4,506 nucleotides of DNA, from IMG/VR virus record IMGVR_UViG_2534681657_000006, one strand, 5' to 3'. This DNA is from a virus (taxonomy: Duplodnaviria > Heunggongvirae > Uroviricota > Caudoviricetes). Shown here in pieces: positions 1 to 4,506 of this stretch (its first letter is position 1; each line of letters opens with the position of its first letter). The notes beneath the pieces were generated by a model. The model was not told the origin of the DNA. It searched no databases and saw only the letters and a list, made by a program, of their open reading frames with translations. Made by a program: the position numbers and the translations under genes.

Positions 1-224
1 ATGTGCTGCTGTGCTGTTTTGGTTCATCGGTGCCGAATCATGCCGCCATTTACTGCGGCGACGGTGAGCTGCTGCACCATATTCCTGAACAACTGAGTAA
101 ACGAGAGAGGTATACCGACAAATGGCAGCGACGCACACACTCCCTCTGGCGTCACCGGGCATGGCACGCATCTGCCTTTACGGGGATTTACAACGATTTG
201 GCCGCCGCATCGACCTTCGTGTGA
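1..224 (+). CDS. K: Tail assembly protein K, C-terminal part (5' end lies outside the window; first full codon at 3, stop TGA 222-224)
   Basis: Open frame runs from the window edge to TGA at 222-224. The translation (...AAIYCGDGELLHHIPEQLSKRERYTDKWQRRTHSLWRHRAWHASAFTGIYNDLAAASTFV) matches my recollection of the C-terminus of lambda gpK, and the gene sits immediately upstream of and overlapping gene I as in lambda. The M at position 3 in the ORF track is a GTG internal codon, not a real start. Confidence 0.8.
   Translation, partial: VLLCCFGSSVPNHAAIYCGDGELLHHIPEQLSKRERYTDKWQRRTHSLWRHRAWHASAFTGIYNDLAAASTFV
103..110 (+). promoter_or_regulatory. Putative Shine-Dalgarno for gene I (GAGAGAGG), 11 nt upstream of the ATG at 122
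   Basis: Purine-rich GAGAGAGG at 103-110 inside the 3' end of K, followed by ATG at 122. The spacer is on the long side. Confidence 0.4.
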
Positions 225-769
225 AAACGGGGTCTGAAGCCATCCGGGCGCTGGCCATGCAGATCCCGGCGTTTCGTCAGAAACTGAATGACGGCTGGTA
301 TCAGGTGCGCATTGCCGGGCGTGATGCAGGTGAAACCGAATTGTCTGCCCGTCTTAATGAGCCGCTGGCAAATGGTGCCGTGATCCACATCGTGCCGCGT
401 CTGGCGGGAGCTAAAAGTGGCGGTGTGTTTCAGGTGGTGCTGGGGGCGGCGCTGATTGCGGTGGCATGGTGGAACCCTGTGGGCTGGCTGGGTGCCGCGG
501 CTGTATCGGGCATGTATGCGGCAGGGGCCAGTATGATCCTGGGCGGAGTGGCGCAGATGCTGGCACCGAAAGCCAGGACGTCCACGGCAGCAAGTACAGA
601 TAACGGCAAACAGAACACCTATTTCTCCTCACTGGATAACATGGTTGCCCAGGGCAATGTTCTGCCTGTTCTGTACGGTGAAATGCGCGTGGGGTCACGC
701 GTGGTTTCTCAGGAGATCAGCACGGCAGACGAAGGGGATGGTGGTCAGGTTGTGGTGATTGGTCGCTGA
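122..769 (+). CDS. I: Tail assembly protein I (215 aa)
   Basis: Complete ORF ATG 122 to TGA 767-769. N-terminus MAATHTLPLASPGMARICLYGDLQRFGRRIDLRVKTGSEAIRALA and C-terminus DNGKQNTYFSSLDNMVAQGNVLPVLYGEMRVGSRVVSQEISTADEGDGGQVVVIGR match my recollection of lambda gpI. It has a central Gly/Ala-rich hydrophobic segment. The start lies inside the 3' end of K in a different frame (103-nt overlap), as in lambda. Confidence 0.9.
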   Translation: MAATHTLPLASPGMARICLYGDLQRFGRRIDLRVKTGSEAIRALAMQIPAFRQKLNDGWYQVRIAGRDAGETELSARLNEPLANGAVIHIVPRLAGAKSGGVFQVVLGAALIAVAWWNPVGWLGAAAVSGMYAAGASMILGGVAQMLAPKARTSTAASTDNGKQNTYFSSLDNMVAQGNVLPVLYGEMRVGSRVVSQEISTADEGDGGQVVVIGR

Positions 770-787
770 TGCAAAATGTTTTATGTG

Positions 788-815
788 AAACCGCCTCCGG
801 GCGGTTTTGTCGTTT
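788..815 (+). terminator. I-J intergenic GC-rich hairpin with interrupted T-tract (possible weak terminator, attenuator or RNA-stability element)
   Basis: AAACCGCC (788-795) and GGCGGTTT (800-807) are exact reverse complements around the loop TCCG, followed by TTTTGTCGTTT. The T-tract is interrupted, so this is not a canonical strong terminator. Confidence 0.3.
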
Positions 816-817
816 AT

Positions 818-821
818 GGAG
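818..821 (+). promoter_or_regulatory. Shine-Dalgarno for J (GGAG), 8 nt upstream of the ATG at 830
   Basis: GGAG at 818-821 with ATG at 830-832; spacing is typical. Confidence 0.6.
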
Positions 822-829
822 CATGACGA

Positions 830-1900
830 ATGGGTAAAGGCAGCAGTAAGGGGCATACCCCGCGCGAAGCAAAGGACAACCTGAAGTCCACGCAGTTGCT
901 GAGTGTGATCGATGCCATCAGCGAAGGGCCGGTTGAAGGTCCGGTGGATGGATTAAAAAGCGTGCTGCTGAACAGTACACCGGTGCTGGACAGTGAGGGG
1001 AATACCAACATCTCCGGTGTCACGGTGGTGTTCCGGGCAGGTGAGCAGGAGCAGACACCGCCGGAGGGATTTGAATCCTCCGGCTCCGAGACGGTGCTGG
1101 GTACGGAAGTGAAATATGACACGCCGATCACCCGGACCATCACGTCGGCAAACATCGACCGTCTGCGCTTTACCTTCGGTGTGCAGGCACTGGTGGAAAC
1201 CACCTCAAAGGGGGACAGGAATCCGTCGGAAGTCCGCCTGCTGGTTCAGATACAACGTAACGGTGGCTGGGTGACGGAAAAAGACATCACCATTAAGGGC
1301 AAAACCACTTCACAGTATCTGGCCTCGGTGGTGGTGGATAACCTGCCGCCGCGCCCGTTTAATATCCGGATGCGCAGGATGACGCCGGACAGCACCACAG
1401 ACCAGCTGCAGAACAAAACGCTCTGGTCGTCATACACCGAAATTATCGATGTGAAACAGTGCTACCCGAACACGGCACTGGTCGGCGTGCAGGTGGACTC
1501 GGAGCAGTTCGGCAGCCAGCAGGTGAGCCGTAATTATCATCTGCGCGGGCGTATTCTGCAGGTGCCGTCGAACTATAACCCGCAGACGCGGCAATACAGC
1601 GGTATCTGGGACGGAACGTTTAAGCCAGCATACAGCAACAACATGGCCTGGTGTCTGTGGGATATGCTGACCCATCCGCGCTACGGCATGGGGAAACGTC
1701 TTGGTGCGGTGGATGTGGATAAATGGGCGCTGTATCTTATCGGCCAGTACTGCGACCAGTCAGTGCCGGACGGCTTTGGCGGCACGGAGCCGCGCATCAC
1801 CTGTAATGCCTGGCTGACCACCAGCGTAAGGCGTGGGATGTGCTCAGTGATTTCTGCTCTGCGATGCGCTGTATGCCGGTATGGAACGGGCAGACGCTGA
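830..1900 (+). CDS. J: J segment 1 (frame 2); J-like translation ends near 1822, and the last 25 codons before the stop at 1900 are out-of-frame readthrough
   Basis: ORF-track ORF with an SD-supported ATG. The J-like sequence is read through ...RITCNAWLTT, then becomes SVRRGMCSVISALRCAVCRYGTGRR. Confidence 0.6.
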   Translation: MGKGSSKGHTPREAKDNLKSTQLLSVIDAISEGPVEGPVDGLKSVLLNSTPVLDSEGNTNISGVTVVFRAGEQEQTPPEGFESSGSETVLGTEVKYDTPITRTITSANIDRLRFTFGVQALVETTSKGDRNPSEVRLLVQIQRNGGWVTEKDITIKGKTTSQYLASVVVDNLPPRPFNIRMRRMTPDSTTDQLQNKTLWSSYTEIIDVKQCYPNTALVGVQVDSEQFGSQQVSRNYHLRGRILQVPSNYNPQTRQYSGIWDGTFKPAYSNNMAWCLWDMLTHPRYGMGKRLGAVDVDKWALYLIGQYCDQSVPDGFGGTEPRITCNAWLTTSVRRGMCSVISALRCAVCRYGTGRR

Positions 1901-2454
1901 CGTTCGTGCAGGACCGACCGTCGGATAAGGTGTGGACCTATAACCGCAGTAATGTGGTGATGCCGGATGATGGTGCGCCGTTCCGCTACAGCTTCAGCGC
2001 CCTGAAGGACCGCCATAATGCCGTTGAGGTGAACTGGATTGACCCGAATAACGGCTGGGAGACGGCGACAGAGCTTGTTGAAGATACGCAGGCCATTGCC
2101 CGTTACGGTCGTAACGTCACGAAGATGGATGCCTTTGGCTGTACCAGCCGGGGGCAGGCACACCGCGCCGGGCTGTGGCTGATTAAAACGGAACTGCTGG
2201 AAACGCAGACCGTGGACTTCAGCGTGGGTGCTGAAGGGCTTCGCCATGTACCGGGCGATGTCATTGAAATCTGCGATGATGACTATGCCGGTATCCGCAC
2301 CGGTGGGCGCGTGCTGGCGGTGAACAGCCAGACCCGGACGCTGACGCTCGACCGTGAAATCACGCTGCCATCCTCCGGTACCACGCTGATAAGCCTGGTT
2401 GACGGAAGTGGAATCCGGTCAGCGTGGAGGTTCAGTCCGTCACCGACGGCGTGA
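1840..2454 (+). CDS. J: J segment 2 (frame 1); J-like reading extends upstream to about 1822 (QRKAWD precedes the nominal GTG at 1840) and ends near 2412
   Basis: The frame 1 translation QRKAWDVLSDFCSAMRCMPVWNGQTLTFVQDRPSDK... continues the J protein with no SD or start of its own. The nominal start is an internal GTG. Confidence 0.55.
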   Translation: MLSDFCSAMRCMPVWNGQTLTFVQDRPSDKVWTYNRSNVVMPDDGAPFRYSFSALKDRHNAVEVNWIDPNNGWETATELVEDTQAIARYGRNVTKMDAFGCTSRGQAHRAGLWLIKTELLETQTVDFSVGAEGLRHVPGDVIEICDDDYAGIRTGGRVLAVNSQTRTLTLDREITLPSSGTTLISLVDGSGIRSAWRFSPSPTA

Positions 2455-2666
2455 AGGTGAAAGTGAGCCGTGTTCCTGACGGCGTTGCTGAATACAGCGT
2501 GTGGGGGCTGAAGCTGCCGACGCTGCGCCAGCGCCTGTTCCGCTGCGTGAGTATCCGTGAGAACGACGACGGCACGTATGCCATCACCGCCGTGCAGCAT
2601 GTACCGGAAAAAGAGCCATCGTGGATAACGGGGCGCACTTTGACGGCGACCAGAGCGGCACGGTGA
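2424..2666 (+). CDS. J: J segment 3 (frame 3); J-like reading from about 2412 (NPVSVEVQ...) to about 2615
   Basis: Frame 3 encodes [68 protein letters not shown], continuous with the J sequence. The nominal start is an internal GTG. Confidence 0.55.
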
Positions 2667-4306
2667 ATGGTGTCACGCCGCCAGCGGTGCAGCACCTGAC
2701 CGCCGAAGTCACCGCAGACAGCGGGGAGTATCAGGTGCTGGCGCGCTGGGACACGCCGAAGGTGGTGAAGGGCGTGAGCTTCATGCTTCGCCTGACCGTG
2801 GCAGCGGATGACGGCAGTGAGCGGCTGGTCAGCACGGCCCGGACGGCGGAAACCACATACCGCTTCACACAACTGGCGCTGGGGAACTACAGGCTGACAG
2901 TCCGGGCAGTAAATGCGTGGGGGCAGCAGGGCGATCCGGCATCGGTATCGTTCCGGATTGCCGCACCGGCAGCGCCGTCGCAGATTGAGCTGACACCGGG
3001 GTATTTTCAGATAACCGCCACGCCGCATCTTGCGGTTTATGATCCGACGGTACAGTTTGAGTTCTGGTTCTCGGAAAAGCGGATTGCGGATATCAGGCAG
3101 GTTGAAACCGCAGCCCGCTATCTTGGCTCGGCGCTGTACTGGATAGCTGCCAGTATCAATATCAAACCGGGCCATGATTATTATTTTTACGTTCGCAGTG
3201 TGAACACCGTTGGCAAATCGGCATTCGTGGAGGCTGTTGGTCAGCCGAGTGATGACGCATCCGGCTATCTGGATTTTTTCAAAGGCGAGATAGGGAAAAC
3301 CCATCTGGCTCAGGAGCTGTGGACGCAGATTGATAACGGTCAGCTTGCGCCTGACCTGGCTGAAATCAGGACGTCCATTACGGATGTCAGCAATGAAATC
3401 ACGCAGACCGTCAATAAGAAACTGGAAGACCAGAGTGCGGCAATTCAGCAGATACAGAAGGTTCAGGTTGATACAAATAATAACCTGAACAGCATGTGGG
3501 CTGTGAAGCTGCAGCAGATGCAGGACGGACGCCTTTATATCGCGGGTATTGGTGCCGGTATTGAGAACACCCCTGACGGCATGCAGAGTCAGGTGCTGCT
3601 GGCGGCAGACAGGATTGCGATGATTAATCCTGCGAATGGCAACACAAAGCCGATGTTTGTTGGGCAGGGCGATCAGATATTCATGAACGACGTGTTCCTG
3701 AAACGCCTGACGGCTCCCACCATTACCAGCGGCGGTAATCCTCCGGTATTTTCCCTGACACCGGACGGGTGGCTGACGGCGAAAAATGCCGATATCAGCG
3801 GTAACGTGAATGCGAACTCCGGGACGCTCAACAACGTCACGATTAACGAGAACTGTCGGGTTCTGGGAAAACTGTCCGCCAACCAGATTGAAGGCGATCT
3901 CGTTAAAACAGTGGGCAAAGCTTTCCCCCGGGACTCCCGTGCACCGGAACGGTGGCCATCAGGGACCATCACCGTCAGGGTTTATGACGATCAGCCGTTT
4001 GACCGGCAGATTGTTATTCCGGCGGTGGCATTCAGCGGCGCTAAACATGAGAGGGAGAATAACGATATTTATTCGTCATGCCGCCTGATAGTACGGAAAA
4101 ACGGTGCTGAAATTTATAACCGTACCGCGCTGGATAATACGCTGATTTACAGTGGTGTTATTGATATGCCAGCTGGTCGCGGCCACATGACGCTGGAGTT
4201 TTCGGTGTCATCATGGCTGGTAAATGACTGGTATCCCACAGCAAGTATCAGCGATTTGCTGGTTGTGGTGATGAAGAAAGCCACCGCAGGCATCAGTATC
4301 AGCTGA
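2621..4306 (+). CDS. J: J segment 4 (frame 2, same frame as segment 1); J-like reading from about 2615 ([11 protein letters not shown]...) to stop at 4306; contains FN3-like repeats and the distal putative receptor-binding region
   Basis: Longest uninterrupted ORF (561 aa). Two segments, [63 protein letters not shown] and [26 protein letters not shown]...[23 protein letters not shown], look like fibronectin-type-III-like beta-sandwich repeats as reported for J-type central fibres. The nominal start is an internal GTG. Confidence 0.6.
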
Positions 4307-4325
4307 ATTTTATAACCCATATACG

Positions 4326-4352
4326 GGCGCCAGAAATGGCGCCTTTTTTATT
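4326..4352 (+). terminator. Rho-independent terminator downstream of J
   Basis: Perfect 7-bp GC-rich stem GGCGCCA (4326-4332) and TGGCGCC (4337-4343) around a GAAA tetraloop, immediately followed by TTTTTTATT (4344-4352). It starts 20 nt after the J stop. Confidence 0.7.
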
Positions 4353-4362
4353 GCAGAAAAGC

Positions 4363-4368
4363 GAGAGG
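4363..4368 (+). promoter_or_regulatory. Shine-Dalgarno for lom-like gene (GAGAGG), 5 nt upstream of the ATG at 4374
   Basis: GAGAGG at 4363-4368 with ATG at 4374-4376. Confidence 0.55.
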
Positions 4369-4373
4369 TAATT

Positions 4374-4506
4374 ATGCGTAAAGTTTGTGCAGCCATTTTG
4401 TCCGCAGCCATCTGTCTGGCCGTATCCGGTGCGCCTGCATGGGCGTCTGAGCAGCAGGCCACACTGAGCGCAGGGTATCTTCATGCCCGTACGAACGCTC
4501 CCGGCA
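4374..4506 (+). CDS. lom: Lom-like outer-membrane protein (Ail/Lom/PagC family), N-terminal part with signal peptide; 3' end lies outside the window
   Basis: ATG 4374 with SD, open to the window end. The translation MRKVCAAILSAAICLAVSGAPAWA|SEQQATLSAGYLHARTNAPG has a classic Sec signal peptide (basic n-region, hydrophobic core, A-W-A cleavage motif). Position directly downstream of J behind its own terminator is the lambda lom position. Only 44 codons are visible, so family assignment rests mostly on synteny. Confidence 0.7.
   Translation, partial: MRKVCAAILSAAICLAVSGAPAWASEQQATLSAGYLHARTNAPG

Follow-up and report, generated by a model that had tools for sequence, protein, structure and literature searches.

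Exchange of the C-terminus of the tail protein J is a textbook means of changing host range. The window analyzed here, a 4506-nt stretch of DNA, carries a J gene whose distal third departs from that of phage lambda. This raises the question of whether the distal third is a mosaic receptor-binding region and, if so, which receptor the resulting fiber would recognize. The best overall explanation, to which we assign a probability of roughly 0.7, is that J is a recombinant gene whose intact protein would form a trimeric fiber directed at a porin, most likely OmpC.

The window and the state of its J gene

The window is the entire contig APXG01000018.1 of the draft assembly GCA_000356445.2 (Escherichia coli 2860650) and represents the K-I-J-lom segment of a lambdoid prophage in that strain (Table 1). 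The order K-I-J-lom is that of lambda and of many lambdoid prophages. The region is highly repeated in E. coli, with matches in 4674 of 5426 complete genomes at a median of three places per genome, and the contig, itself part of a draft assembly, resembles a collapsed prophage repeat.

Two of the neighbors of J merit brief description. The non-lambda patch of gene I (residues ~68–160 of its product) has 54–70% nucleotide identity to lambda and includes a hydrophobic stretch that is eight residues shorter than its lambda counterpart; the patch is a second mosaic segment within the same operon as J. The lom fragment shares 93–98% identity with its counterparts in cdtI, WGPS2, and phage 204576, 87–92% with that in 434, and only ~55% with that in lambda.

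Table 1. Features of the 4506-nt window (residue numbers refer to repaired J)
Feature	Position (nt)	Strand	Remarks
K, 3' end (C40 peptidase)	1..224	+	truncated at contig start
I, tail assembly gene, 215 aa	122..769	+	gene call; non-lambda patch at nt 301–600
J, tail-tip/central-fiber gene, 1159 codons once repaired	830..4306	+	split by three 1-nt deletions
Lambda-like part of J: hub and two Ig/FN3-like domains	830..3234	+	90–100% aa and 88–100% nt identity to lambda
Shaft module S1, residues ~804–944	~3235..3658	+	~50% identical to lambda
28 extra residues relative to lambda (836–856 and 860–866)	3332..3424	+	MAFFT alignment; in predicted long helix
Conserved lower β-prism island, residues 945–1010	3659..3856	+	89% aa identity to lambda
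RBD of type R-A, residues 1011–1159	3857..4303	+	Pfam Ig_GpJ_C; naturally exchanged module from ~nt 3791
Terminator-like hairpin, GC-rich, followed by T run	4325..4344	+	between J and lom
lom, 5' part (Ail/Lom outer-membrane protein)	4374..4506	+	first 133 nt; PF06316; truncated at contig end

The initial annotation followed the J product as one protein, but in this contig J does not form one ORF; three frameshifts that had gone unnoticed cut the gene. The ORF list divides J among three different frames (nt 830–1900, 1840–2454, and 2621–4306), and an uninterrupted frame of about 1130–1160 codons does not occur in this contig. Alignment to phage vB_EcoS-640R1 and E. coli 602354, in both of which J is intact, placed three 1-nt deletions, one after nt 1821, one within nt 2405–2412, and one within nt 2613–2615. 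As written, J is frameshifted and this copy could therefore not make a fiber; annotators of this contig should mark the gene accordingly. Because the three deletions total −3, distal J returns to its original frame. The distal ORF that carries the divergent region is intact, the frameshifts lying outside nt 3280–4306. Once repaired, J is 1159 aa long, which is the length of the intact homologues in its 90% cluster. Relative to E. coli 602354, the nearest complete genome, nt 2851–4506 are 100% identical to intact J and its flank. The 67 mismatches and three indels against that genome all fall in nt 1–2850, a distribution that fits a collapsed or chimeric repeat consensus.

Modules of the distal third of J

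Repaired J was aligned globally to lambda J (NC_001416), and identity was calculated per 50-residue block. Amino acid identity is 94–100% up to residue 750 and 90% for residues 751–800, in keeping with the initial description of the first two thirds of J, FN3-like repeats included, as close to lambda gpJ. It then falls to 44% (residues 801–850), 28% (residues 851–900, with the 28-residue insertion), and 60% (residues 901–950), returns to 94% (residues 951–1000), and drops again to 37–54% (residues 1001–1159). Nucleotide identity to lambda is 88–100% at nt 601–3200, 82% at nt 3201–3300, and ~40% at nt 3301–3500; it is back up to 88% at nt 3701–3800 and stands at ~58% for nt 3801–4400. Mismatches are dense from nt 3235, continuous from nt 3287, sparse across nt 3649–3856, and dense once more from nt 3857, which makes the originally proposed onset of divergence at nt 3280 accurate. 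The stretch FFKGEIG begins at residue 817 (nt 3275).

Plotted along the alignment in this way, identity is not uniformly high over the C-terminal 350 residues. The distinct C-terminal portion of about 150 residues that had been singled out is borne out, as the RBD (residues 1011–1159) is 44% identical to lambda J residues ~985–1132. The distal third as a whole is divergent, as claimed, but it is not one block: the conserved island at residues 945–1010, which is 77–94% identical in all 13 J proteins compared, splits it into two modules.

Domain names follow cryo-EM work on lambda (PMC11101478). The Pfam models Ig_J (residues 610–714, 144 bits) and Ig_J_second (residues 716–818, 137 bits) match the center of the protein, and PF24801 and PF13550 match the upstream J ORFs. 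Toward the C-terminus, PF09327 (Phage_Tail_Tip) spans residues 872–1000 (108 bits) and PF12421 (Ig_GpJ_C) spans residues 1029–1159, scoring 134 bits against a cut-off of 26.2; the RBD thus belongs to the same family as that of lambda. Based on hub and Ig homology, the fiber and RBD families, and gene order, J is predicted to be a lambda-type tip attachment protein (TipJ/gpJ). It has the domain order of lambda gpJ (P03749; PDB 8iyk, 8xcj, and 8xck), which binds LamB: hub, two Ig/FN3 domains, helical shaft, β-prism fiber, and Ig-like RBD. Compared with lambda gpJ, the window protein has a shaft that is ~50% identical and 28 residues longer, an RBD that is 44% identical, and a different likely receptor, OmpC.

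The shaft module S1 corresponds to the α-helical shaft and upper β-prism of lambda. Within the stretch of extra residues, I, L, or V recur at a spacing of three to four. AlphaFold2, run in single-sequence mode on the distal 360 residues, returned a poor model (mean pLDDT 41) in which residues 843–898 form a helix at pLDDT ~50–74. The hydrophobic pattern and this low-confidence helix agree with the earlier description of a Q/N-rich, probably helical stretch. The 28 extra residues probably constitute a longer helical shaft; at 1.5 Å per residue, we estimate that, were they helical throughout, they would add ~4 nm to the helix. The longer shaft would be expected to change fiber length alone.

Thirteen J proteins were compared over their last 560 residues, which distinguished four shaft types and four RBD types. 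Shaft S1 (129 aa) is found in the window, phage 21, cdtI, PhiR55_1, PPompW, and phage 204576, which share it at 97–100% identity. Shaft S2 (101 aa) occurs in lambda, 434, 2H10, and PhiR49_1, shaft S3 (129 aa) in BP-4795 and Stx2a_WGPS2, and shaft S4 (202 aa) in PhiR49_2. The RBD types are distributed differently. Type R-A is carried by the window, 204576, PhiR55_1, WGPS2, PPompW, and PhiR49_2 (91–99% identical to the window), R-B by phage 21, BP-4795, and 2H10 (63–68%), R-C by lambda (44%), and R-D by 434, cdtI, and PhiR49_1 (42%). Nine shaft and RBD combinations are represented among the 13 proteins, and the shaft and the RBD are two independent modules. Natural helical shafts are 101, 129, or 202 aa long, that of PhiR49_2 J being 73 residues longer than that of the window.

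The same pattern is evident in the DNA. Between nt 2600 and ~3740 the window shares 92–100% identity with phage 21 and cdtI, after which identity drops to 48–67% in the RBD. Its shaft is 98% identical to that of phage 21 J, with DNA near-identical up to nt 3690, but its RBD is 68% identical to that of this phage, which natively uses LamB. The cdtI shaft is 100% identical to that of the window, and the cdtI RBD, of another type, is 42% identical. Against Stx2a_WGPS2 the relationship is reversed: identity is 60–82% as far as nt 3790, apart from one 60-nt bin at 87%, and 87–98%, mostly 95–98%, beyond it, the two being near-identical from nt 3791. These reciprocal identity patterns indicate recombination rather than gradual divergence, and the reciprocal breakpoints against phage 21, cdtI, and Stx2a_WGPS2 uphold the proposal of a mosaic receptor-binding region. 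Recombination junctions map to about nt 2951–2973, 3235–3287, 3649–3660, and 3791–3860. The first of these lies inside the Ig/FN3 region, where the J genes of PPompW and phage 204576 are 60–80% identical to the window upstream and 93–100% identical downstream.

The conserved lower prism is likely to serve as the crossover zone between the shaft and RBD modules. Engineered gpJ chimeras were fused at lambda J aa 964, a position within the conserved island (PMC11338833, Methods). The window J combines a lambda-like hub and Ig domains with an extended helical shaft like that of phage 21 and cdtI, joined, across the conserved β-prism stretch, to an RBD of the VT1-Sakai/PPompW/Stx2a_WGPS2/PhiR55_1 type.

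Polymorphism within type R-A affects 18 of 149 sites in the RBD vs 4 of 129 in the shaft, a concentration that is expected of a receptor-contact module. Residue 982 (nt 3758–3772) is W in the window J and R or K in 49 other R-A variants. The TGG codon is also present in E. coli 602354, which identifies W982 as a lineage variant and not an error.

The receptor of the R-A type

Receptors are established for several relatives. Lambda uses LamB and phage 434 uses OmpC (PMC11101478; PMC12502783); 434 is the classical J-mediated user of OmpC, and its RBD, of another type, is 42% identical to that of the window. The native receptor of phage 21 is LamB, and OmpC was gained by one J mutation (PMC11336670). 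Two gpJ chimeras also use OmpC. A8 works with both the K-12 and EDL933 alleles, and 1A2 works with the EDL933 allele and some others but fails with that of K-12 (PMC11338833).

By sequence, A8 gpJ (PDB 9wca and 9wcb) is the closest solved structure to the window J (E = 4e-128), ahead of lambda J (8xcj and 8iyk, E ~1e-107); 9wcb also holds three OmpC chains. The A8 protein has an Ig-like RBD that uses OmpC. Read from 9wca, this RBD matches that of phage 2H10 (type R-B) exactly and is 63% identical to that of the window. With A8 as the side described, the comparison of the two RBDs gives a loop six residues longer after KHE and a loop four residues shorter after FPR. A8 accepts the K-12 OmpC allele, which 1A2 does not. 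The residue numbers of the lambda receptor-contact loops L1–L4 are not given in the text of PMC11101478.

The chimera 1A2 (Brodel et al., 2024; PMC11338833) is among the closest known systems and shares its RBD type with the window, the E. coli O157 prophage PPompW, and VT1-Sakai J. The DNA of its gpJ was taken from the supplement of PMC11338833 as a noisy PDF extraction and decoded by frameshift-tolerant alignment. The 1A2 RBD is of type R-A and agrees with PPompW at every reliably read position; HEKEHTD, AGHGH, SAWLVNNW, and GITIS are among the motifs they share. The window RBD is itself 95.3% identical to that of PPompW over residues 1011–1159 with no gaps, within the bounds of type R-A (at least 90% identity and no indels). 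Identity between the window and 1A2 RBDs is ~95% at reliably read positions and 92% over readable positions, with a strict lower bound of 88% over the last 155 residues. The seven reliable differences (R1076K, N1078H, N1079T, R1118H, S1129A, D1134N, and S1157T) lie for the most part where RBD types differ from one another and where R-A itself is polymorphic. The natural module boundary in the window J lies in the same fiber stretch as the engineered fusion at aa 964; apart from the seven RBD substitutions, the two proteins differ in that 1A2 has the short shaft of lambda and the window has the 28-residue longer shaft of the phage 21 type.

In cells deleted for lamB and ompC, 1A2 delivery reached ~98% with some supplied ompC alleles and ~2% with others (PMC11338833, Extended Data Fig. 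1 source data). Delivery into wild-type, LamB+ MG1655 was 5% at a multiplicity of infection of 50, compared with ~90% for wild-type lambda (PMC11338833). By analogy with these data, phages of the R-A type would use OmpC in an allele-restricted manner and not K-12 LamB. Since a near-identical RBD works through OmpC alleles and barely through LamB, OmpC is the likely receptor here, and the window allele would most likely recognize certain alleles of this porin rather than LamB. The initial suggestion of a receptor other than LamB is thus supported by the published work on 1A2, from which we infer the specificity of the window allele. In the source data for Extended Data Fig. 2 of PMC11338833, the 1A2 and A8 numbers in panel c (OmpC-EDL933) are the same as those in panel b (OmpC-MG1655), probably because values were copied by mistake when the file was prepared for deposition.

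By homology with lambda (PMC11101478) and the A8 gpJ structures, the intact J trimer would form the tail-tip cone and central fiber. Its three Ig-like RBDs would dock from outside the cell, bottom loops first, into a porin trimer that is most likely OmpC. As the RBDs spread, the β-prism would twist, the helical shaft would flip and partly refold, the Ig domains would be released, and the tube would open.

Other sources add little on the receptor. The outer-membrane receptor of R-A phages is not given in PMC13190303, which describes the PhiR phages, in a receptor-prediction preprint, or in the phi330 paper. Phage phi330 uses OmpC and was considered as a carrier of an R-A type J; it was rejected, as the phage is closest to phage WGPS6 and has limited identity to lambda tail proteins. 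Among the PhiR phages, growth on K-12 was recorded for none of the six with an R-A RBD vs 5 of 18 others, numbers too small for significance.

The receptor question would be moot for this copy if J were a dead gene in a decaying prophage, its frameshifts real and its fiber never made. In favor of such decay, the three deletions leave the first ORF truncated at 356 aa, the truncated product is on record from this contig alone, and a 38-mer spanning the first deletion has no exact match in the GTDB representative genomes. We give this reading appreciable weight but put it clearly below an even chance, as the contig is a 4.5-kb draft fragment that ends inside K and lom, the region is present at a median of three copies per E. 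coli genome, the confinement of every mismatch and indel to nt 1–2850 is the pattern of a collapsed or chimeric consensus, and the deletions sum to a restored frame. A different history, in which the distal third drifted gradually from a lambda-like ancestor without recombination, appears extremely improbable. Divergence from lambda does set in gradually, over nt 3235–3287 and with no single sharp point, but drift is at odds with the 28-residue indel, with a conserved island standing between two divergent blocks, with the reciprocal identity to phage 21/cdtI and to WGPS2, and with the nine combinations of shaft and RBD.

The RBD of the window J might still use LamB, as those of lambda and phage 21 do, its divergence reflecting drift or adaptation to LamB variants. 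Membership of the same Pfam family as the lambda RBD is consistent with this, as is the 68% identity of the window RBD to that of phage 21, a native user of LamB. Single mutations can shift specificity in the J family, and the phage 21 case (PMC11336670), in which few mutations suffice to change the receptor, also argues against certainty about OmpC; the phage 21 RBD is 81% identical to that of the OmpC-using A8. We nevertheless regard continued use of LamB as improbable, given that 1A2 delivers poorly into LamB+ MG1655 relative to lambda and that, in a host lacking lamB, its delivery varies with the ompC allele provided. As weak evidence in the same direction, none of 57 phage records with an R-A RBD gives K-12 as the propagation host. 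It is conceivable, though rather unlikely in our estimation, that the window allele, which is shared with an ETEC group and is distinguished by W982 and its seven differences from 1A2, might recognize a different range of OmpC alleles, or a porin other than OmpC, and that its extended shaft might tune fiber reach or the trigger for tail opening. Our preferred reading remains that of a recombinant J whose fiber would be directed most likely at OmpC.

Prevalence of the J tip types in E. coli

The feature described here is well known and very common: it is annotated in thousands of genomes, and lambda particles have already been redirected to OmpC with a near-identical RBD. A protein search with the distal third gave 97–98% identity in the best 120 of 8000 candidates passing the threshold, and the 90% cluster of the window J has 6699 members. 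The prevalence of each RBD type was determined by megablast against 5426 complete E. coli genomes, counting genomes that matched most of the query. Type R-A is present in 3350 genomes (62%) at 7603 places in all, R-B (2H10/A8) in 2407 genomes, and R-D (434) in 2091 genomes. Type R-C, that of lambda, is present in 96 genomes (98 with any match), and the three of these that were listed by name belong to laboratory strains. Every match to the lambda RBD has at least 99% identity, which indicates that the R-C and R-A types do not cross-match. Among natural J variants in E. coli, R-A is the most frequent; a tip unlike that of lambda is the norm, and that of lambda is the exception.

Two consequences follow for this family of fibers. 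The LamB-binding tip of lambda is a rare form in natural E. coli. Shaft and RBD modules are combined independently of each other on either side of a conserved fiber stretch, which offers natural fusion points for engineering.
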